The position numbers and the translations under genes were made by a program. Of a stretch of DNA of 64,000 nt, positions 42,990 through 56,313 are shown one piece after another. Every line of letters starts with the position of its first letter. The stretch's first letter is position 1. The notes below the pieces were generated by a model, which saw nothing but the letters and a program-made list of their open reading frames with translations, was not told the origin of the DNA and ran no database searches. This DNA comes from a bacterium (lineage in GTDB: Bacteria > UBA8248), in NCBI GenBank assembly GCA_965204535.1, contig CBDBEV010000001.1:1024001-1088000 (forward strand), in the 5' to 3' direction.

Positions 42990-44918
42990 ATGAGGTTTTT
43001 CATGTTCTCTCACCTCCTCAAGAAGGCGTCGCTGGCTCTTGCGATGCTCATGATTCTTCTCTGCGCATCCGTCGGTTCGGTTCACGCCCAGGAGAATGAT
43101 TACCGCAAGGCCCTGGGCCTCATCAGCGACAAGCTGCACCAGCGATTCCCGAACCTGCGCGGCGCGGTGGTCGCCGTCAGGGGGGCGGATCTTTACTTGA
43201 GCCTCGGAGAGAAGGATGAGGTGGTCAAGGGCGTCAAGCTGAGCGTCTACCGCGAGGGCGCGCCGTTTCGCCACCCGACGACGGGCGTCGTTCTCGGCAA
43301 GCTGGAAGAGGAAATCGGCGAGATCGAGGTCGTCGAGGTGCGGGAGAAATTCTCCATCGCGCGTCTGGTGCGCCTGGCGCCGGGCGGGCGGCTCTCCCCG
43401 CGCGTCAAGGACACGGTGCGCATGTCCGCCGCGAAGGTTCGCCTGGCGATACTGCCATTCGTCAACCAGACGAAAGAGCCTGTCAGCATGGAGACGCTCA
43501 CGAGAGAGCTGAGTCGCCAACTCCTGAGGAGCGGACGCTTCGACGTCTACGACGTGGACAGGCTCCAGGTATGGCTTCTGGAGACGGGTGTCGCCACCGA
43601 TGAAATTCTCAAAGGCGAGAATCCGATTCGTCTGCGGAACCAGGTGCGGGGCGACATGGCGATCGAGAACGAGCTCCGCGAAATCCGGGGGAAGAAAATC
43701 CTCTCCACCCGCCTTTTGTCTCTTACGACAAAAGAAGAACTCTTCAAGGCCGTGGCGATTGCGGATGAATTGCCCTTCGAGCAGCGCCCGCCCAAGGAGC
43801 AGGAATTGAGGCGCGCCGGGGACGGTGTGCGCGCGGGGCCTGCGAACGAGAGCTTCGTGCTCGCCCGCGAGGGCGTACCAAATAGAGGAGGCGGCCAAAA
43901 AAGCTACTCGTTCGACAAGGCCGCATTCCGGGGGCTGTCCGTCGCGGACGTGGACGGGGACGGAAAAAACGAAGTCGTCCTCATCACGCAGACCCAGGTT
44001 ATCGTCAACCGCTTCGAGAATAACCGGATGCGCGAGGTTGCCCGCTTCGACGAGGGGGCGGCGAACGACTTCCGCTGGCTCGACGTCGCCGACATGAACG
44101 GAGACGGCGCGCCCGAGTTCTACCTCGCCTCATACCGCTCGAACGAATTGTTCTCGCTGATCCTGCAGTTCAAGGGCGGGAAGTTCACGCCACTCGTCCG
44201 GAACGACAGGACGTTCTACCGCCTGCTCCGCGCCCGGCGGCCCAGGAAGGGCGAGAAGATCCCCGATACGGAAGCCTATCTGCTCCTGGGCCAGAGCGAG
44301 GGGATCGAGAGCGCTTTCGAGGGCCCCATCAGCCGCTACCGCTGGTCGGGGGGAAATCTCACGCCCGCCGCCCCCTATGCGCTTCCGCCGGATTTGACGA
44401 TACTGGGCTTCGGCTTGTGGGACATCAACAAGGACGGCGCGCAGGAAGTCATCGAGGTCGGGAAGGACGACAGGCTGAGGGTGTTTTCCAGAAGCGGCGC
44501 GGAGGTATTCTCCAGTTCTGAAATCTACGGCGTGCCCGTCCATAGATTCCACTCACAGGCCGGCGACGATCGCACCGACGAACAGGAAGATACGCCGGAT
44601 CTCCCCATACGCTCGCGCGTGCTGGTCGAAGATGTCGACGGGGACGGTGTGGACGAGGTTATGGTGATCAAAAACGAATACGCCACCGCCTTCGCGCCGG
44701 GCCTGGGCGTTTCGGGAGGGCAGATCGCAAGCCTGATATGGGACGGCAGCGGCTTGAGCGAGACCTGGCGCACGAGGAAGTTGGGCAGCGGAGTCGTGGA
44801 TTTCGCCTTCGGCGACGCGGACAATGACGGTTCCGACGATCTTGTGGTGGCGGCGACGGACGCGAGCGTGTTCACTAGCGGGAAAAGCCGGATTTTCTTC
44901 TACAGGATCAGGGAATAG
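42990..44918 (+). CDS. Exported FG-GAP/VCBS repeat protein
   Basis: Signal peptide; repeated DVDGDG/DMNGDG/DADNDG motifs. Confidence 0.82.
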   Translation: MRFFMFSHLLKKASLALAMLMILLCASVGSVHAQENDYRKALGLISDKLHQRFPNLRGAVVAVRGADLYLSLGEKDEVVKGVKLSVYREGAPFRHPTTGVVLGKLEEEIGEIEVVEVREKFSIARLVRLAPGGRLSPRVKDTVRMSAAKVRLAILPFVNQTKEPVSMETLTRELSRQLLRSGRFDVYDVDRLQVWLLETGVATDEILKGENPIRLRNQVRGDMAIENELREIRGKKILSTRLLSLTTKEELFKAVAIADELPFEQRPPKEQELRRAGDGVRAGPANESFVLAREGVPNRGGGQKSYSFDKAAFRGLSVADVDGDGKNEVVLITQTQVIVNRFENNRMREVARFDEGAANDFRWLDVADMNGDGAPEFYLASYRSNELFSLILQFKGGKFTPLVRNDRTFYRLLRARRPRKGEKIPDTEAYLLLGQSEGIESAFEGPISRYRWSGGNLTPAAPYALPPDLTILGFGLWDINKDGAQEVIEVGKDDRLRVFSRSGAEVFSSSEIYGVPVHRFHSQAGDDRTDEQEDTPDLPIRSRVLVEDVDGDGVDEVMVIKNEYATAFAPGLGVSGGQIASLIWDGSGLSETWRTRKLGSGVVDFAFGDADNDGSDDLVVAATDASVFTSGKSRIFFYRIRE

Positions 44919-45380
44919 CGTTCTTCGCGCCGCCGACTCCCGGCGCGGTCCGGTTTTCGAGCGGGGAAATGCGGGGAGATGCGCGCAAATGCGGGGGCCG
45001 GAAAAATTTTTTAATTCGATAAATTTCTGAAAAAAATTCACGTTTTTCGTTGGGTTATCCGCATAAACCATTGAATAAAAATCCTGTATTCCGTTGCTTC
45101 GATCCCGAAACATTTTCAGGAATTTATCGATATTTACCGGATTTTTCAGGAATTCCACCGTTCTCCCCGCGCCTTCCCCCACCGGCGCCCCGCCGCCCGC
45201 TCCCGCATGACGCCATCGCCGGAAATTCGCCCGCTTCATTTTCCCCTCCTCCCCCTTCGACGGGAATGTTCGCTTCTCACGCGCGCGATTCTCGCCCGTC
45301 CCGCGAATGACCCGGTAACCGCAATTGCGGGGAAATGCGGACCCGGCCCCGACCGGGGAGGCGGGATAAAACCCCCCTGA

Positions 45381-45575
45381 GGGGGTTGTTGAAAAAGGCC
45401 CATCAATCGGGGTTGGCGCGTAGGGGCGGCCCCCCGTGGCCGCCCGTGTCGGATATGTCCATCTGCGTGGCTGTGCTTCGCAGGGAGAAGCATGGGGGCC
45501 ATGGACAGGCACAGGGGCCTGTCCCTACAAACCTTCTATTTGCAGGGTCCTGCGCAGACCTCTTCAACACCCCCC
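45381..45575. repeat. MITE-like element with IS1182-like ends carrying a GTAG REPIN
   Basis: GGGGTTGTTGAAAAAGG...CCTCTTCAACACCCC enclosing GTAGGGGCGG...GTCCCTAC. Confidence 0.75.
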
Positions 45576-45752
45576 TACGGGTTCGTCTTGATACGCGGGG
45601 CGTAGGGACAACCCCCTGCGCCGGTCCGGGAGCGCGGCCTGTCCTTGCGAGGCGGTGCGGTTTTGTTCGTCGTCCCGGCGTCATCGCCGGCCGATGCGGA
45701 AGGTGTTGCGGAGTGACGACCGGAGACGAATGCGGTTGCGTCCGCCGCCGGC

Positions 45753-46160
45753 TCAGCCGTCCTGACGCGCGGAGGGCGCGGACGTGCGGCGGATGAGCTC
45801 CCGGAGCGCCTCCATGGTCTCGCGGTGGCGCTCCCTCTGCTCCTCGCGTTCGGCGCGCAGCACGGCCATGGTTTCGCGGTGGCGCTCCTTGTGCTCCTCG
45901 CGTTCGGCGCGCAGCGCCTCCATGGTTTCGCGGTGCATCGCGTCCCGATGCCGCGCGGCCTGGCGCATGATGTAGAGGCCGTAGGCGATCAGTCCGCATT
46001 GCGCGGCCCCGACGAGGGCGGCCACCCACACGGAGGCCCACTGCGCGGCGAGGGCGGCTTCCTGGAGGGCGAGGCTCGCCTTTTGCAGGGCGAGGCTCGA
46101 TTGCTGTACGACGAGGTTTGATTGCTGTACGGCGAGGCTTGCGGTTTCGTATTCCGTCAT
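45753..46160 (-). CDS. Small TM protein with HRETM..LRAEREE repeats
   Basis: GGGAG RBS; heptad N-terminus, one TM, three 18-aa-period repeats. Confidence 0.7.
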   Translation of the reverse strand: MTEYETASLAVQQSNLVVQQSSLALQKASLALQEAALAAQWASVWVAALVGAAQCGLIAYGLYIMRQAARHRDAMHRETMEALRAEREEHKERHRETMAVLRAEREEQRERHRETMEALRELIRRTSAPSARQDG

Positions 46161-46251
46161 TCGATTTTCTCCCGTGAAGCCTCGTGAGCAGCAAGTCCGG
46201 TCAGTTTCGCCCAGGGCGGTGGAGAAGTCAAAGAGCGAACGCGAGTGAGGA

Positions 46252-46398
46252 GGGGGTGTTGAAAAAGGCCCATCAATCGGGATCGGCGCGTAGGGGCGGC
46301 CCCCCGTGGCCGCCCGTATCGGATATGTCCATCTGCGTGGCTGTGCTTCGCAGGGACAAGCATGGGGGCCTTGGACAGGCACGGAGGCCTGTCCCTAC
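46252..46398. repeat. Direct repeat of 45381-45528
   Basis: About 147-bp near-identical copy. Confidence 0.85.
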
Positions 46399-46461
46399 GG
46401 GTCGGAGGACGGACAACGCGAGGAGGCCCTGTTCCCGCGTTTCGCTGCGTTCTCCACGCAC

Positions 46462-46491
46462 AAAAAAACCGGGGGGCCGAAGCCCCCCGGT
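46462..46491 (-). terminator. Intrinsic terminator after the porin gene
   Basis: ACCGGGGGGC/GCCCCCCGGT stem with A7 (U-run on the minus strand). Confidence 0.8.
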
Positions 46492-46532
46492 CGTCGTCGC
46501 GTCAGGTGAGGACGCGAACGTCGGTCGTGCGG

Positions 46533-47741
46533 CTAGAAGGTATGGATCACCGCCCAGCCGAACATCCAGGCGTCGTCCAGATCCTCGCCGCCTGCATCTT
46601 TACCGTAGTCGCCGCGCATGAGAACGGCGGCATCCGCTGCTAGCAAGAGATTCGGGTGAACTTGCCACTTCATAGTGACGCCGACCTGGGTGCCGAAATC
46701 CTTCGCGTTCTCCTTGCCCGCCTCGGGATGATCTTCGGCGGAATTGTATAGCGCTACGCTGCCGAGCAGCGTAAAGGTCTTGCTGACCGCGTATTCGCCC
46801 AGTCCCTCGAGCACGACTGCGCCGTTCATGCTGCTCAAATTCTTGTCTTGGAGGGCAGTCGAAAGACCTGTCGGGCTGTCACCTCCCATGATATAGCGGC
46901 CGGCCACTTCTGTGCCTTTGCCACCTCGAGGGCCAAGAAATTTTCCGCTTTCCCCCGGGTCGGAGCCGTCGTCGCCGGAGAACATGGTGAAGTTGCCGCC
47001 GAGTTTCAGCTTGCCCATACTGGCAGAAGTCCGCAACAGAAGCGCCCAAGCAGCGATGTCTTCTTTACTGTTGTTCTCGCCGCCCTGGAAGACGCCCGAG
47101 GCGTTCACGTTGAAGATGCCCGCCTTGCCCTTGGCGTTCAGGCCGAGGAAGTTGTAGTTGTAGCCGTTGTCCGCTCCATCTTTGGAGTTGGCCGCCCACG
47201 GCGTGAGGGTGAGGTTGGGGGCCACCTTGATGGTCAGGGCGGCGTAGTAATCCGTCACGTCGGCGTTGTCGGGGCCGCCGTCTTCATTATCTTTGATGTG
47301 GAACATGCTGAGCGAGAGGTTCTTGCTGAGCTTGCCGAAGACCTGGACGCCCGCTATGCGGTTGGCGCTGCCCCTGTAGATTTCGCCGTCCGGAGAGGCG
47401 GAGTCCGTCTTGCCCAACCTCATTTTAAGCGCGCTGCCCGGAACCGCGAATTCGAGCACCCAGCGGTTGGTGACGACAGCTCGCTTCTCTGCACCAGCAA
47501 ACGCACTAAACTGGGGTTCCCACCAGAGCCTGACGCCGCCGGCATTCGTCGTGAATCTGGGCCGCAATAACGCATCCAGTTTATTCACCTTGTCGTCATC
47601 GTCATCGTTCCCGTCCGCGTTGTTTTGGCTGGTTCCCCGCACCCGGTACCAACCTTGCATCTTGAAATCGGCCGCGTACGAGGGCGCTACAAACGTCGCT
47701 ACGAGCGCCAGCGCAAACAGAGTTAACAGAATTTTCCTCAT
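46533..47741 (-). CDS. Outer-membrane porin
   Basis: Signal peptide, amphipathic beta strands, terminal Phe, strong RBS and terminator. Confidence 0.8.
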   Translation of the reverse strand: MRKILLTLFALALVATFVAPSYAADFKMQGWYRVRGTSQNNADGNDDDDDKVNKLDALLRPRFTTNAGGVRLWWEPQFSAFAGAEKRAVVTNRWVLEFAVPGSALKMRLGKTDSASPDGEIYRGSANRIAGVQVFGKLSKNLSLSMFHIKDNEDGGPDNADVTDYYAALTIKVAPNLTLTPWAANSKDGADNGYNYNFLGLNAKGKAGIFNVNASGVFQGGENNSKEDIAAWALLLRTSASMGKLKLGGNFTMFSGDDGSDPGESGKFLGPRGGKGTEVAGRYIMGGDSPTGLSTALQDKNLSSMNGAVVLEGLGEYAVSKTFTLLGSVALYNSAEDHPEAGKENAKDFGTQVGVTMKWQVHPNLLLAADAAVLMRGDYGKDAGGEDLDDAWMFGWAVIHTF

Positions 47742-48396: not shown

Positions 48397-49383
48397 ATGC
48401 GAATCTGTACGTTCAGCCTGGCGGGCGAGGCGCGCATCGGCGTGTTGTTCGGGGAGAAAATCGCCGACCTGAAACTGGCCAGCGCCCTGTCGCTGGATGA
48501 GGAAACAGCGGCGGAGGCGATGGACCGCGTCGAGGCCGAGGTTCCCGATGATTGCGAGGAGTTCATCGAGGATCTGGAACTGAACCGCCCTCTCGCAGAA
48601 GAAGCCCTCGAAGCGCTCGAAGCGCATGGACGGAAAAAAGACCCGATTCGCTTCGACGGCATGCAGGTGGTCTATGAACCCGGTGAAGTCGAGATTCTCC
48701 CTCCCGTCGTGCCGGACACGCTGTTTTGCATGGCGAGGAACTACGTGGCCCATGCCGCCGAGATGGCGCGCACCGAAGTGGATGATTTCAAGGAGGAACT
48801 CCCGCTTTATTGTTTCCTGAAGCCCGCCACCTGCGTGAGCGGCCCGTATGAGGACGTGCCCGTCTATCCCTCGATGGAGAAGCTCGACTACGAGCTCGAA
48901 CTCGGCGTGCTCATCGGCCAGGGCGGCAAGAACATTCCGGTGGAAAGGGCCATGGACCACGTGGGCGGCTACACCCTGTTCAACGACATGAGCGACCGCA
49001 CGAGCCTCAACATGGGCAAGTTCATCGACTGGTACGCCATGAAGGCCCCGGACGGCTTCGCCCCCATCGGCCCCTACATCCTGCTCCCCGAGGAGGGCCT
49101 CGACCCCCACGATTTGAGGCTCAAGCTCTGGGTGAACGGCGAACTGAGGCAAGACGCCACAACGGGCGACATGGTCTGGCGGGTCGCCGAGCAGGTATCG
49201 TATCTCTCGGGGATAGCGACCTTGCGGACGGGCGACATCATCGGCACCGGCTCTCCTGCCGGCAACGCCGCCTCGTGGGGGGAATATCTCCAGGCGGGCG
49301 ACCTGATAGAGGGCGAAATCGAGGGGGTCGGGCGCCAGGCTTTTCGAATCAAGAGTGAAAGCCCCGAATATACGCCGGGCTAG
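48397..49383 (+). CDS. Fumarylacetoacetate hydrolase family protein
   Basis: RNYVAH, LDYELELG, FNDMSDR and GDIIGTGSP motifs. Confidence 0.9.
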   Translation: MRICTFSLAGEARIGVLFGEKIADLKLASALSLDEETAAEAMDRVEAEVPDDCEEFIEDLELNRPLAEEALEALEAHGRKKDPIRFDGMQVVYEPGEVEILPPVVPDTLFCMARNYVAHAAEMARTEVDDFKEELPLYCFLKPATCVSGPYEDVPVYPSMEKLDYELELGVLIGQGGKNIPVERAMDHVGGYTLFNDMSDRTSLNMGKFIDWYAMKAPDGFAPIGPYILLPEEGLDPHDLRLKLWVNGELRQDATTGDMVWRVAEQVSYLSGIATLRTGDIIGTGSPAGNAASWGEYLQAGDLIEGEIEGVGRQAFRIKSESPEYTPG

Positions 49384-49478
49384 TTCTCCCGGCGGTTGAT
49401 TCGCATCCGTTTGCGCATTAAGATTTTCGCCGTCGATCGATAAACATCCGAACCGCTGAAACCCGAGAGGGGACCCTC

Positions 49479-50846
49479 ATGAATCCAGCCATAGCCGAAG
49501 CCGAATCCCTGCGGACGATGGACAAGGAGCACGTCTGGCATCCGCTCATGAACCATTCCGGGATGGAGGAAAATCCCCTCGACGTCGTGGTCAAGGCCAG
49601 GGGTTCGACCATCCAGGACGCCTCCGGCAAGGAATACATCGACGCCATGGCGGGGCTTTGGTGCGTGAACATCGGCTACGGGCGCGACGAGGTGGCCAAG
49701 GCGGCCTACGAGCAGATGTTGGAATTGGCCTATTACCCGCTGACGCAGGTGAACCCGCCCGCGGCGAGGCTTGGCCAAAGGCTCGCGTCCTTGCTGCCCG
49801 ATGGCGTCGAGCGCGTCTGGTTCGTGAACTCGGGCTCCGAAGCCGTGGACACGGCCATCAAGATCGCCCGCGCCTATGGACGCTTAAACGGCGGAAGGCG
49901 ATACAAGATCATCGCCCGCCACCAGGGCTATCACGGAGCGACCATCGGAGGCGCCAGCCTCACCGGCCAGACGCTCCGGCGCGCGATGTTCGAGCCGCTG
50001 CTCCCGGGCGTGATTCACGTGAGCGCGCCCTATTTCTACCGAAGCAACGCGGACACCGAGGAAGAACTCGCCCGCCGGTGCGCGGACGAGTTGGATGAGG
50101 TCATCCGCTACGAAGACCCCGAGACCGTGGCGGCGTTCATCGCGGAGCCCGTCATCGGCGGCGGCGGGGTGATTCCCCCGCCCGCGGATTACCTGAGGCG
50201 CATGCGCGAGGTGTGCCGGAACCACGGGGTTTTGTTCATCGCCGATGAGGTCATTACCGGCTTCGGACGCACGGGAGAGCTCTTCGCCTCGGACCTCTAC
50301 GAGATCGCGCCGGACATCATGACGATGGCCAAAGGGCTGAGCAGCGCCTATCTGCCCATCGGGGCGACGGCGACCACGAACGAGATATTCGAAGCCCTGA
50401 ACGCCGAGGGAGACTCAGGCTTTCTGCAGATAAACACCTACGGCGGACACCCCGTCGCATGTGCTGCGTCGCTCAAGAACCTCGAGATCATGATGGACGA
50501 GGAGTTGCCCGCGCGCGGCGCCAAGGTGGGCGCATATCTCGGCGGGCTTTTGGGAAAGCTCTCCGACATCCCCTGCGTGGGCGACGTGCGGGGCGTGGGC
50601 CTCATCTGGGGGGTGGAGTTGATAGAGGAAGACGGCGCGCCGCTGTCCACGGCGGCCACGGCGAAAGTGCTGGCATACGCGAAGGAGCAAGGCGTGATCT
50701 TCGGCAAGAACGCCGGCATCGCGGCGGGTCCTTCGAACACCGTCACCATCAGCCCGCCGCTGGTATTGACCGAAGAGGAAGCCGAGCGCGCCGCCTCCGC
50801 TCTCGACGCCGCCCTGCGCCGCGTTCAGGCGGAGAGCGGAGCCTGA
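49479..50846 (+). CDS. Class III PLP aminotransferase (omega-amine type)
   Basis: DAMAGLWCVN, SGSEA, YHG, DEVITGFGRTG and MAKGLSS motifs. Confidence 0.93.
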   Translation: MNPAIAEAESLRTMDKEHVWHPLMNHSGMEENPLDVVVKARGSTIQDASGKEYIDAMAGLWCVNIGYGRDEVAKAAYEQMLELAYYPLTQVNPPAARLGQRLASLLPDGVERVWFVNSGSEAVDTAIKIARAYGRLNGGRRYKIIARHQGYHGATIGGASLTGQTLRRAMFEPLLPGVIHVSAPYFYRSNADTEEELARRCADELDEVIRYEDPETVAAFIAEPVIGGGGVIPPPADYLRRMREVCRNHGVLFIADEVITGFGRTGELFASDLYEIAPDIMTMAKGLSSAYLPIGATATTNEIFEALNAEGDSGFLQINTYGGHPVACAASLKNLEIMMDEELPARGAKVGAYLGGLLGKLSDIPCVGDVRGVGLIWGVELIEEDGAPLSTAATAKVLAYAKEQGVIFGKNAGIAAGPSNTVTISPPLVLTEEEAERAASALDAALRRVQAESGA

Positions 50847-50895
50847 TGCGATAGCCGACAATTTTTCCCGCACATCATTTTCAGGGAGATTTCAT

Positions 50896-51567
50896 ATGTC
50901 CAACATCACCATGCTCGACATCGAGGATCTGAAGAAGACGAAGCTGGCGCCGTTCGTGAACAAGGCGCTCAAGCACCGCGCGCCCGACCCCGCCTTTCAC
51001 GCCATGCAGGGCCACAACGAGGATTTGGCGAAATCGATGTACCTCGCGTGGGGCACGGTGTTCAACACCGGCGTCATCGACCACAAGCTCAAGGAGATCA
51101 TCCGCGTTCAGCTCTCGCGCCGCGCCTTTTGCAACTACTGAGGGAACGTGCGCTCTGCTTCGGCGAAGCAGGCCGGCCTGACGGAAGAGATGATAGACGA
51201 GGGCATCGACAACTGGCGCGAGAGCGCGCTTTTCACCGAATCCGAAAAACTCGCGCTGGAATACAGCGAACTCATGGATTCGGAACCCGAGAAGATCGAC
51301 GAGGCCTTCTACGCGAGGCTGCGCGAGCACTACTCGGATGAGGAGATTGTGGAGCTCGGCTCTTTCATCGGCTTCAACGTGGGCTACCACACCTTTTTCA
51401 GGACGCTCGATTTCTACCCCATGTTCACCCCCGACGGCAGGCTGGTGAGTCAGGAGGAATCGCGCCGCATCTACGGCGATTGCCCCGTCTCGCACATGAG
51501 CGGGCCGCTTGAGCGCGCGCTCGAAGAGGGCGAGGCGCAACAGGCAGGCGGAGGCCAGGAGGGGTAG
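50896..51567 (+). CDS. AhpD/CMD-family selenoprotein (CxxU; in-frame TGA at 51139-51141)
   Basis: ORFs 50896-51141 and 51148-51567 share a frame; ungapped alignment to the downstream paralog across the TGA; downstream hairpin. Confidence 0.82.
51139..51180 (+). promoter_or_regulatory. Candidate bacterial SECIS element
   Basis: Stem CTGCTTC/GAAGCAG (51155-51171) with a G-led loop about 21 nt after the UGA. Confidence 0.65.
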
Positions 51568-51569
51568 CC

Positions 51570-52175
51570 ATGCCGATCATCGAGCCGCTCGAACCCGAAG
51601 GAATTGAAGAGAAGAACTGGAAGCGCGTCATGGAGCGCACCGCCGAGACCCAGGCGCCCGATGAGCTTTTCTCGCGCATCATGGCCCATGCGCCCGGCTA
51701 TGCCGCCAACCTGCACGACGCTATGCACCGCTCCCACGCCATGGGCGGGGTGGACCACAAGCTCAAGGAGATGGTTCGCATCCAGCTCGCCAGGACCGCG
51801 CAAGACACCTACTTCGCGAACCTGCGCTCCGAGCAGGCGAAAAAAGAGGGCCTGACGGAAGAACGCATCGAGGCCGCCTGCGGCGATTTCGAGAACGACC
51901 CGCAGTTCACCGAAGCCGAGAAGTGGGCGCTCCGCTATTCCTACTGGATGTACCGGGACGCAACGAAGCTCGACAAGGGATTCTACGACGAAGGCAAGAA
52001 GCACTTTTCAGAAGCCCAGATCATGGAGATCGGCGCGATGGTGGCGATTCACTATGGTTTCCAGGTCTTCATGCGCACGCTCAAGGCCTATCCGCTCCAC
52101 GATCCGGAGGGAAACCCGGTGACGCAGGCGCAGTCCGAGCAGATTTACGGGAAAGACGTGCCCTCGCCCGCCTGA
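51570..52175 (+). CDS. AhpD/CMD-family paralog lacking the redox motif (DTYF)
   Basis: DHKLKEMVRIQLA and FTEAEKWAL; co-linear with the upstream gene. Confidence 0.85.
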   Translation: MPIIEPLEPEGIEEKNWKRVMERTAETQAPDELFSRIMAHAPGYAANLHDAMHRSHAMGGVDHKLKEMVRIQLARTAQDTYFANLRSEQAKKEGLTEERIEAACGDFENDPQFTEAEKWALRYSYWMYRDATKLDKGFYDEGKKHFSEAQIMEIGAMVAIHYGFQVFMRTLKAYPLHDPEGNPVTQAQSEQIYGKDVPSPA

Positions 52176-52204: not shown

Positions 52205-52453
52205 GGCGGGGTTGTTGAGAAAGCCCCCTTTTTCAGGGGATAAAGGCACCCTCCCTACCCCCCCCTGTCGGGGTTGTTGAAAAAATCCTGATATCGTGAT
52301 TCGGTGTATGGAGCTGACCAGGGAAGAGACTGTCGGGACAGGTCGCGACCTGTCCCTGCGAGGCGTTGTGGTTTTGTTCGTCATTCCGGCCTTGAGCCGG
52401 AGTGACGGCGGTGGCCGGTTCCGGCCGAGGATGACTTTTTCAACAACCCCGCC
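52205..52453. repeat. MITE-like element with IS1182-like ends, inside a terminator-like hairpin
   Basis: GGCGGGGTTGTTGA...TCAACAACCCCGCC, flanked by CGCCCGCCGG/CCGGCGGGCG. Confidence 0.7.
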
Positions 52454-52498: not shown

Positions 52499-53311
52499 AT
52501 GCCGATACTCTTGCGTGACATCTGGGCAATAGAAAATCTCACGGATTTCAAAGTCCACTACGCCCGATGGAACGGCGCATCCCAGCCTTTGGAGGTTTGG
52601 TTGAACGACAGGCGCGCCTGGCGAGGTTGGCAGGAATACCGCCCAAAACGTAACGATTTCAACAGGCAGTATATTTTCTCGTTGATGCAGTTTTACCACG
52701 AAACCGATATCTGGCTATTCGGCGGTGTATTCGAGGTCGTGGAACGCCATGACGATAGATACGAAGTTGAACTGACCGATCAAGGAAAAGAATTCATCGG
52801 TCGCTTGAAGTTGCGCTCCCCATTTCGAGGCCGGGGAACACGTCTTAATTTCGAGAATCATTTTGAACGATTCAAAGTTCAGGAAATTCTGCGGGAGCCG
52901 TATTCGGGGCGTTCTTTTCCCGGTTATGAAGATGTCGACTTGTCGTTCGCAGAGTTAGAAACACTGGTGCGAAATGACAGGCCGGACTGGAAAGGCGCGC
53001 TTGAGAGCGTGAAAGGCGTCTATTTGATCACCGACACCAAAGCGGAAAAAAGGTATGTGGGCTCCGCCTATGGCGATCAGGGAGTGTGGTCCCGTTGGAG
53101 TCAATACATCGAGAGCGGGCATGGCGGAAATGTCGAACTGAGCGAGTGGCTCGACGCTCAAGGAGGGGTGGATTACGGTCGTGTTCATTTCCGTTTCACT
53201 CTTTTGGAGCATCGGGCTGCTCGAGCGCCTGACGACCTTATCCTTGGGCGCGAGGAATTCTGGAAGCGCATACTCATGACGCGCGGCAAGCAGGGGTTCA
53301 ATTGCAACTGA
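52499..53311 (+). CDS. GIY-YIG nuclease family protein
   Basis: GVYLI...YVGSAYG...RW...GGN...E...N motifs; less GC-biased codons. Confidence 0.85.
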   Translation: MPILLRDIWAIENLTDFKVHYARWNGASQPLEVWLNDRRAWRGWQEYRPKRNDFNRQYIFSLMQFYHETDIWLFGGVFEVVERHDDRYEVELTDQGKEFIGRLKLRSPFRGRGTRLNFENHFERFKVQEILREPYSGRSFPGYEDVDLSFAELETLVRNDRPDWKGALESVKGVYLITDTKAEKRYVGSAYGDQGVWSRWSQYIESGHGGNVELSEWLDAQGGVDYGRVHFRFTLLEHRAARAPDDLILGREEFWKRILMTRGKQGFNCN

Positions 53312-55428: not shown

Positions 55429-55458
55429 AAAAGCGCCCGCCGTCCCGCGGGCGTTTTT
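55429..55458. terminator. Bidirectional terminator between amt and the TA pair
   Basis: AAAAGCGCCCGC/GCGGGCGTTTTT. Confidence 0.65.
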
Positions 55459-55880
55459 CATGCGTGGGAATACAGGGTGAAATCCCTGTCGAGCCATAAG
55501 ACATGGAACATGGTTCTGTCTCGATATCCCACCATGGGGCGTCTGCCGAAAAAACGGAAAGCGAGGAGGTTCACCTCGTCCGTGATGTGTGGCGGCATCG
55601 ATGCCTTGATTTGATTTCGAGGTATCTTTTCATATCCGGTTGCGTGTCTGTTCGAGCTCGCGATCTGATTCCAGGTCAATCGACTCAATTTGTCGAGGGT
55701 GTCGGCGAAGGCGGCTTTTTCGTCTCTTTGACAATTTTTCAGGGAATGTTCCCTTTGACTCAAATAGCGAAGCGAAAACTTGGGCGGGAGCGTTTGCGGG
55801 GAAACGCCGCGAGAAGAACCGGGTTTTATTCTCTCCCCTTTGTTCCTTCTGTCTTTGGGCCTAATCCGCCTCTTCGCCAT
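55458..55880 (-). CDS. Putative toxin paired with a Panacea antitoxin
   Basis: Basic 140-aa protein overlapping the antitoxin stop by 20 nt; C-terminal FHVLWLD..F.LY.H. Confidence 0.65.
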   Translation of the reverse strand: MAKRRIRPKDRRNKGERIKPGSSRGVSPQTLPPKFSLRYLSQREHSLKNCQRDEKAAFADTLDKLSRLTWNQIASSNRHATGYEKIPRNQIKASMPPHITDEVNLLAFRFFGRRPMVGYRDRTMFHVLWLDRDFTLYSHA

Positions 55881-56313
55881 TTTCCATCTGGGCCTTGAAA
55901 TACGTTTTCATGGATCGGTTCGAGATGGCTTCCCTCTTCTCGGAAGCGACTCGCCAAGGCGCATCTTCGTGCGTCATGTTTCTCAGCTTCCAGGCCGAAA
56001 ATTGTCCGTAGACGTCATAGACCTCATCGAGAAATTCCTTTTCTTCGTCGTTGAATTTGCTGAAATCCATGTTTTCGGGGTTCGGAATCGGAGCGGAGCC
56101 GTATTCCTTGTATTCCCGGAACAGGTTCGGGATGACGGGACCATACAGCCATGCCTCGATGCGGTCCTCGAACAGCGGCTCGTCATAAAGCGCCAGATGA
56201 TAGCCCTGCGCATAGTAGACGAGCTTTTGCAATTTCATGTTCGAGATCAGATCGCCCGCGTCCTCATCCTGAAGCGAGAGAAAATACTCGGCTACGTCTT
56301 TGCAGGTAAGCAA
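55861..56313 (-). CDS. Panacea-domain (DUF4065/SocA-like) antitoxin
   Basis: ISNMKLQKLVYYAQG, IEAWLYGPV and LRNMTHEDAPW motifs. Confidence 0.9.
   Translation of the reverse strand: MLTCKDVAEYFLSLQDEDAGDLISNMKLQKLVYYAQGYHLALYDEPLFEDRIEAWLYGPVIPNLFREYKEYGSAPIPNPENMDFSKFNDEEKEFLDEVYDVYGQFSAWKLRNMTHEDAPWRVASEKREAISNRSMKTYFKAQMENGEEAD

Follow-up and report, generated by a model that had tools for sequence, protein, structure and literature searches.

Adjacent selenocysteine and inactivated genes

The analyzed window, a stretch of 64,000 nucleotides of bacterial DNA, contains two neighboring genes on the forward strand, hereafter called A and B, whose features are listed in Table 1. The frame of A holds a single internal TGA, and reading this codon as selenocysteine (Sec, U) gives the motif C79-N-Y-U82-G-N-V-R-S in a protein that is matched by the Pfam CMD family (PF02627; 30.6 bits, cut-off 23). 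B starts 2 nt past the TAG stop codon of A, and an earlier sequence-only reading had described it as homologous to A along its length, with CNYU replaced by DTYF. Both statements were confirmed by BLASTP, which aligned the two products over residues 1-197 vs 1-198 (71/198 identical, 36%; E 2e-44) and placed DTYF of B opposite CNYU of A, while the Pfam CMD match of B (PF02627) reached 24.1 bits (cut-off 23). From this sequence arrangement, we infer translational coupling of A and B. The hairpin that follows B has to be read against a promoter and terminator scan of the region, which found 5 terminator-like sites vs 4.1 expected, that is, a chance level.

Table 1. Features of the A-B locus, in window coordinates
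Feature	Position	Strand	Basis
FAA-hydrolase and class-III aminotransferase genes, 49 nt before A	48397..50846	+	local context, outside the conserved unit
AGGGAG, Shine-Dalgarno-like, 5' of A	50883..50888	+	sequence
Gene A, predicted 223-aa AhpD/CMD-fold selenoprotein	50896..51567	+	frame with TGA read as U, Pfam, alignment
In-frame TGA, predicted selenocysteine codon (U82)	51139..51141	+	codon conservation, Sec machinery, Cys in relatives
SECIS-type hairpin, bacterial, 7-bp stem, GGC loop at 51162-51164	51155..51171	+	conservation and compensatory change
AGGAGG, Shine-Dalgarno sequence for B, within the 3' end of A	51557..51562	+	sequence
Gene B, 201-aa Cys/Sec-less paralog of A	51570..52175	+	translation, BLASTP, alignment
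Codons for D79-T-Y-F82, inactivated redox motif of B	51804..51815	+	translation, A-B alignment
Terminator-like hairpin and T run after B	52208..52227	+	sequence scan, chance frequency

TGA was present at the Sec codon in 79/79 related loci in which the site lies on the contig, and it is therefore no chance stop. A SECIS-type hairpin was found at +17 to +33 in 82/82 sequences (10 distinct forms). Its pair 18:32 is compensatory (U-A in 50 and C-G in 32 of these sequences), two further pairs covary in the clade of partner-less Sec genes described below, and 7 of the 82 have one mismatched stem pair (G-G). When the folding energy of this region was compared with that of shuffled sequences, the hairpin was not singled out (z from 0.6 to 1.0). 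The same genome carries tRNA-Sec and SelA (E 7e-153), and distant relatives of about 30-36% identity have Cys in the Sec slot, as in CGYCSTVRS and CEFCGNQRS. Judged by its codon, its hairpin, and the Sec machinery of the genome, gene A is a bacterial selenoprotein gene. Residues E67, R70, C79, Y81, U82, G83, N84, V85, R86, N161, and H165 are invariant in 57/57 A sequences, a family with 41 invariant columns, and C79, U82, E67, R86, N161, and H165 are also invariant in 3/3 partner-less Sec sequences. The C-terminal tail is near-invariant in the A family (Y193 in 55/57). In-frame CxxU motifs occur in ten AhpD-like genes of the genome, A included, and CxxC in one more, which amounts to a large expansion of such genes.

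In comparison with A, B shows the exchanges C79D, U82F, N161H, H165Q, F56H, and W52M/L. Its residues at these and adjacent positions recur throughout 69 B sequences (D79 in 67, F82 in 66, H161 in 64, Y162 in 63, H56 in 62, and Q165 in 58), and E67, R70, and R86 stay invariant, while the number of invariant columns is 15 vs 41 in A and none of the residues peculiar to B is invariant. The H165Q exchange in the dead copy suggests that H165 may take part in the chemistry of A. The tail YP..P(D/E)G..V(S/T)Q..S..IYG, previously noticed as common to both genes, is indeed present in A and B of this locus but missing from 54/69 B sequences, and is therefore no family feature of B. Relaxed selection on B was looked for, and purifying selection was found instead: across 23 same-genus sequences (253 pairs), dN/dS was about 0.14 for B and 0.09-0.10 for A. 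The B tree is 2.2 times as long as the A tree, so B evolves about twice as fast. One database protein of 181 aa (P0180) begins like A and continues like B, the switch falling within the helix that both share ahead of the motif; it is either a recombinant or a misassembly.

Linkage of A and B across genomes

A search of the genome collection with an alignment of B confirmed 275 stretches, of which the best 80 were kept. A was located directly upstream of B in all of these best 80 of 275 loci, one of which is cut by a contig end, and 71 of the 78 unfused pairs have a gap between -10 and +49 nt. These best 80 of 275 loci included 30 from Alphaproteobacteria, 12 from Betaproteobacteria, 12 from Nitrospinota, 2 from Acidimicrobiia, and 1 each from Tectomicrobia and SAR324. 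The linkage was also examined in reverse, using a partner-less Sec sequence as the query against metagenomes, which gave 65 A-type loci; B followed A in 55/55 of those whose downstream sequence was 350 nt or longer. The pair is thus conserved as neighbors in both directions of the search.

Among 51 genomes of the own phylum, 43 gave a match, namely 39 full pairs, 2 A genes at contig ends (one of which shows the start of B), and 2 genes of the partner-less clade, whereas among 301 genomes of another order, 32 matched (29 pairs, 2 A genes at contig ends, and 1 CxxC relative). An occurrence of B independent of the Sec gene was looked for as well; no lone B was found in these 352 genomes, whose kin do not count as independent cases, at a search threshold of 1e-30, where a very diverged lone B could score below. 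Two candidates for A without B (G025 and G029) were rejected, as both fall in the separate partner-less sister clade, and a candidate lone B (G540) proved to be a CxxC relative. In a class-wide sample of 300 genomes, the pair was present in the seed genome only, which indicates a patchy distribution. The linkage counts leave out the context of diverged Cys-less relatives, e.g., P0256, P0268, and P0275; these and P0269, P0284, P0314, and P0365 are B-like proteins that are possibly partners of another active clade. Contigs from RNA libraries of relatives (about 91-96% identity) span the A-B junction in 3/4 runs, and since contigs cannot prove a single transcript, they were not counted as evidence.

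Gene neighborhood

A conserved third gene accompanying the A-B pair across taxa was looked for among the neighbors, and none was found. The FAA-hydrolase and aminotransferase genes preceding A at this locus each occur near the pair in 31/80 loci (best 80 of 275), mostly in close kin, and the remaining neighbors are varied, mostly catabolic enzymes and transporters with no common pathway. A thioredoxin gene was detected 23-91 nt upstream of the pair in 31 loci, with the C-x-P-C motif in 29. Where the sequence upstream of the pair was long enough to tell (129 paired loci), 29 have this neighbor (4/77 in the genome set and 25/52 in the metagenome set), many of them near-duplicates; it is restricted to one sub-branch and absent at the locus of this window. 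UxxC peroxiredoxin-like genes lie directly 3' of B in 3 loci and 5' of partner-less genes in 4, and a single read with such neighbors is mentioned in the excerpted text of PMC2398784. These links favor a thiol/selenol relay, without naming its substrate.

Several other elements were noticed nearby. The pair is followed in the window by a 270-aa gene (52499-53311, forward strand) with a weak, below cut-off match to a GIY-YIG-type endonuclease model (TIGR01453), which only a few of the related loci have as well. Two small adjacent genes at 55458-56313 (reverse strand) are toxin-antitoxin-like, and we take the antitoxin to be of the DUF4065/Panacea type. At 44553-46621, the same short stretch recurs in translations of several frames, suggesting a repeated intergenic element. 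A UGSC-family gene (PF24696; L025:2013-2339), which may be another selenoprotein gene truncated at its TGA, was seen about 5 kb 5' of the pair in 24/80 loci (best 80 of 275), mostly of the same genus.

Evolution of the pair

Trees of A and B built from 49 pairs have 24 of 46 splits in common (shuffled pairings: mean 0.18, maximum 2), and the patristic distances of A and B correlate with an r of 0.85 over the 49 pairs. These mirrored trees show inheritance as a unit, not binding. In a tree of 126 rows, the A (57), B (57), and partner-less Sec (3) sequences are each separated from the rest by a single branch (support 85, 95, and 93, respectively), and as this is a quick tree with long outgroup branches, its root is unsure. 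The partner-less Sec genes, whose products are 45-48% identical to A, were found in two genomes and nine metagenome loci, seven of which have room downstream, and B was present in none of these seven. They keep all site residues of A and lack its tail, and they show that the fold can work without B. The CEFCGNQRS subfamily of Cys relatives is partner-less, too (L183:3084-3743, L184:2841-3545, L191, and L192); at L184, the gene sits between an alpha/beta hydrolase gene and genes that we take, in part, to be GST-, dehydrogenase-, and lipoyl acyltransferase-like.

A and B also occur as a single chain. A-then-B fusions were represented by 13 database proteins, all annotated from starts past the Sec site, and for one of them the DNA sequence itself shows a 426-aa frame that contains a single TGA. 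Given the branches with good support, such fusions must have arisen at least twice. As the database entries of A itself (P0123-P0128, P0145, and others) either have Trp at the Sec codon or are fragments starting after it, the A family and its fusions are mis-annotated.

Predicted structure and likeness to Sestrin2

The model of A (pLDDT 92) matches long AhpD-like proteins. In the model of the natural A-B fusion (pTM 0.88), disorder is confined to the linker and the tail, and the two halves are packed together. The best fold match of this model is human Sestrin2, which covers both halves (Z 24.4, rmsd 3.4, 299 residues, 12% identity; TM 0.53/0.61 by Foldseek), and single chains reached Z values of 17.2 (Bmp8) and 17.1 (6K40). 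The fusion model together with the Sestrin2 match predicts a pseudo-symmetric A-B dimer; the packing seen in the model may merely echo the solved AhpD-like homodimers.

As stated in the excerpted text of PMC4674687, the two domains of Sestrin2 overlay an AhpD-like homodimer, the catalytic Cys is present in the first domain only, and the second domain reuses its dead site, where an Asp406/Asp407 motif is needed for mTORC1 control. Human Sestrin2 (PDB 5DJ4, 5CUF) and the predicted A-B model are alike in combining an active and a dead AhpD-like unit into a pseudo-dimer with the active unit first. Unlike A-B, which has a CxxU motif and is mostly encoded by two genes, Sestrin retains the His and uses a single Cys, that of the first slot. 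Profiles of B and of the fusion gave no match to Sestrin sequences at E≤10, and the likeness is most likely convergent.

Comparison with known AhpD-like proteins

CxxU selenoproteins named 'CMD domain-containing protein' or AhpD-like appear in the excerpted texts on the Sargasso Sea and GOS data (PMC1088965, PMC2398784) and in the list of a review (PMC13188914). Two of the four Sargasso entries (AACY01716242 and AACY01688758; PMC1088965) have, when compared by eye, the same CNY-U-GNVRSASAK sequence and hairpin as A, and by this criterion A is a member of a selenoprotein family already published in 2005. Unlike A-B, these entries are partial reads with no function assigned, and neither a dead partner nor a heteromer nor a fusion is named in the excerpted text. 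Bacterial fusions of AhpD-like units in which one domain lacks Cys are described in an excerpt of the review PMC11429811, and E. coli YciW is to be compared as well. As in A-B, two AhpD-like units with unequal sites are combined in them, but they are single chains with Cys, whereas here partner-less, two-gene, and fused stages coexist with Sec. No NCBIfam model passed, the nearest being NF053654 (YciW-related (seleno)protein), with scores of 71.3 for A, 40.1 for B, and 94.1 for the fusion vs 310.

The AhpD-like peroxidases (M. tuberculosis AhpD, PA0269, D. radiodurans 6K40, and R. eutropha 2PRR) have the same fold (Z 10-17). AhpD has a five-residue relay, with His137 as the relay histidine (His55 in PA0269), according to the excerpted text of PMC3141380, and four of the five positions so given match in A (E67, C79, Y81, and U82; 57/57 A sequences). 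The fifth, the His located four residues past the second Cys, is replaced by Arg86 in 57/57 A and 69/69 B sequences, so peroxidase chemistry cannot be transferred from AhpD to A. Furthermore, the known AhpD-like peroxidases are homo-oligomers, unlike the arrangement predicted here, and the motif is non-helical in both the A and the fusion models.

Among the PDB profile matches, Bmp8, a tetrabromopyrrole debrominase (PDB 6OHI, 6OHJ), ranked first with either protein (E 7e-14 for A, E 2e-9 for B), at an identity of about 20%. Its CxYC aligns with CxYU of A, and Sec thus occupies the slot of the second Cys, whereas the liganded Bmp8 structure is that of a first-Cys (C82) mutant. The His that follows the motif of Bmp8 by three residues is Val85 in 57/57 A sequences, and the slot of Bmp8 Asn170 is filled by H165 in A and Q165 in B; we take this His and Asn170 to have functional roles in Bmp8.

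Proposed function of the A-B pair

We propose that A and B form a heterodimer that acts as a selenol oxidoreductase through a single working site, with B as a structural pseudoenzyme, and we give this reading of architecture and chemistry together a probability of roughly 60%; the heterodimer by itself we consider likely. The sequence-only reading had put forward a catalytic/structural subunit pair, an idea that is now well supported, though indirectly, by the linkage of the genes, the selection acting on B, and natural fusions that are modeled with packed halves.

In the proposed heterodimer of the long AhpD/CMD fold, C79/U82 of A would be the sole redox site and B the structural half. The complex would reduce an oxidized substrate, likely a hydroperoxide or the disulfide of a partner protein: the U82 selenolate would attack the substrate and C79 would resolve the product to a selenenyl-sulfide, with H165 and R86 replacing the missing relay histidine, and the site of A would be re-reduced by a thioredoxin-type protein. 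Such a pair could have arisen from an ancestral partner-less Sec gene, probably encoding a homodimer, that duplicated once. One copy would have kept the site and gained the conserved tail, the other would have filled its pocket (U82F, C79D, N161H, and H165Q), and the heterodimer would have been fused later, at least twice.

A possible but less probable explanation retains the heterodimer and assigns a task to the pocket of B (D79, H56, H161, Y162, and Q165), which would bind a small molecule, a metal, or a partner protein and thereby control A. That B fixes residues of its own rather than drifting, at the frequencies given above, fits this idea, as does the Asp406/Asp407 motif in the dead site of Sestrin2. 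However, the lack of any invariant B-specific residue, the 15 vs 41 invariant columns, and the longer B tree argue against it. The D-P-Y-F motif opens a short helix in the fusion model, and Asp is also a typical helix cap, so a structural cap explains its conservation; nor was a conserved signaling neighbor seen among the genes surveyed. A bolder version, which we put forward only tentatively, is that the system might be a selenium-based bacterial re-invention of Sestrin, seen at three stages, in which the Asp/His pocket of B, as a metabolite sensor or as a docking site for a partner, gates a His-free Arg/His165 Sec site.

It is unlikely that the pair acts in catabolism by reducing one specific organic substrate, e.g., as a reductive dehalogenase similar to Bmp8 or to a deiodinase, the latter being a function that had been suggested speculatively for A. 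The rank of Bmp8 among the profile matches and the mostly catabolic enzymes and transporters in the neighborhood point in this direction, and close relatives were found in RNA libraries labeled as sponge metagenome, sponges being rich in organohalogens. Nevertheless, the identity to Bmp8 is low, and structures annotated as peroxidases score equally well (Z 16-17). Moreover, the position of Sec in the second slot does not agree with the first-Cys mutant of the liganded Bmp8 structure, the Bmp8 His is Val throughout the A family, no halogenase-type family was present among the 93 recurrent neighbor proteins scanned, and the carriers of the pair include groundwater and open-water isolates. The deiodinase-like function thus gained no specific support.

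Even less probable is the idea that each gene encodes a homo-oligomeric enzyme of its own, both acting in one pathway, and that Asp79/His161 of B catalyze a non-redox reaction such as decarboxylation or hydrolysis. Linkage and fusion occur for pathway genes, too, and decarboxylases as well as Cys-less proteins belong to the CMD superfamily (excerpted text of PMC3141380). On the other hand, no third pathway gene accompanies the pair across taxa, B was never seen alone, the fusion is predicted to fold as one pseudo-dimer, and D79 is replaced in 2/69 and H161 in 5/69 B sequences. In an NCBIfam scan (E≤0.01), B matched no decarboxylase model, only the general Pfam CMD match being obtained, and no linkage of B to the beta-ketoadipate or another pathway was seen among the neighbor genes surveyed. 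The Asp-based chemistry that had been considered for B found little support, as D79, though present in most B sequences, is also a helix-cap residue in a protein that evolves about twice as fast as A.

Finally, it is highly improbable that TGA is a true stop or a Trp codon and B a decaying duplicate, since the six near-full-length database homologs with W at the site look like gene-caller artefacts (most others start 3' of it), all DNA loci show TGA and the hairpin, TGA ends genes in the window of a genome that has tRNA-Sec and SelA, and dN/dS is below 0.15 for both A and B.

Significance

In the literature searched, outside which most subscription papers lie, we found no published AhpD/CMD-family heterodimer and no dedicated dead partner for these selenoproteins. 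Likewise, no description of an obligate partner, of repeated fusions, or of a Sestrin-like layout was found in print, including the excerpted texts of PMC13188914 and PMC13326102. The selenoprotein itself and its fold are already known, whereas the partner, the fusions, and the Sestrin-like layout are those parts for which we found no published description. Should the proposed A-B complex exist, it would show in what form a selenoprotein known from lists since 2005 has to be expressed for study; for single-chain tests, the natural fusion of 426 aa is at hand. The complex would also provide a natural series leading from a homodimer through an enzyme-pseudoenzyme pair to a fusion, the route that has been proposed for Sestrin.
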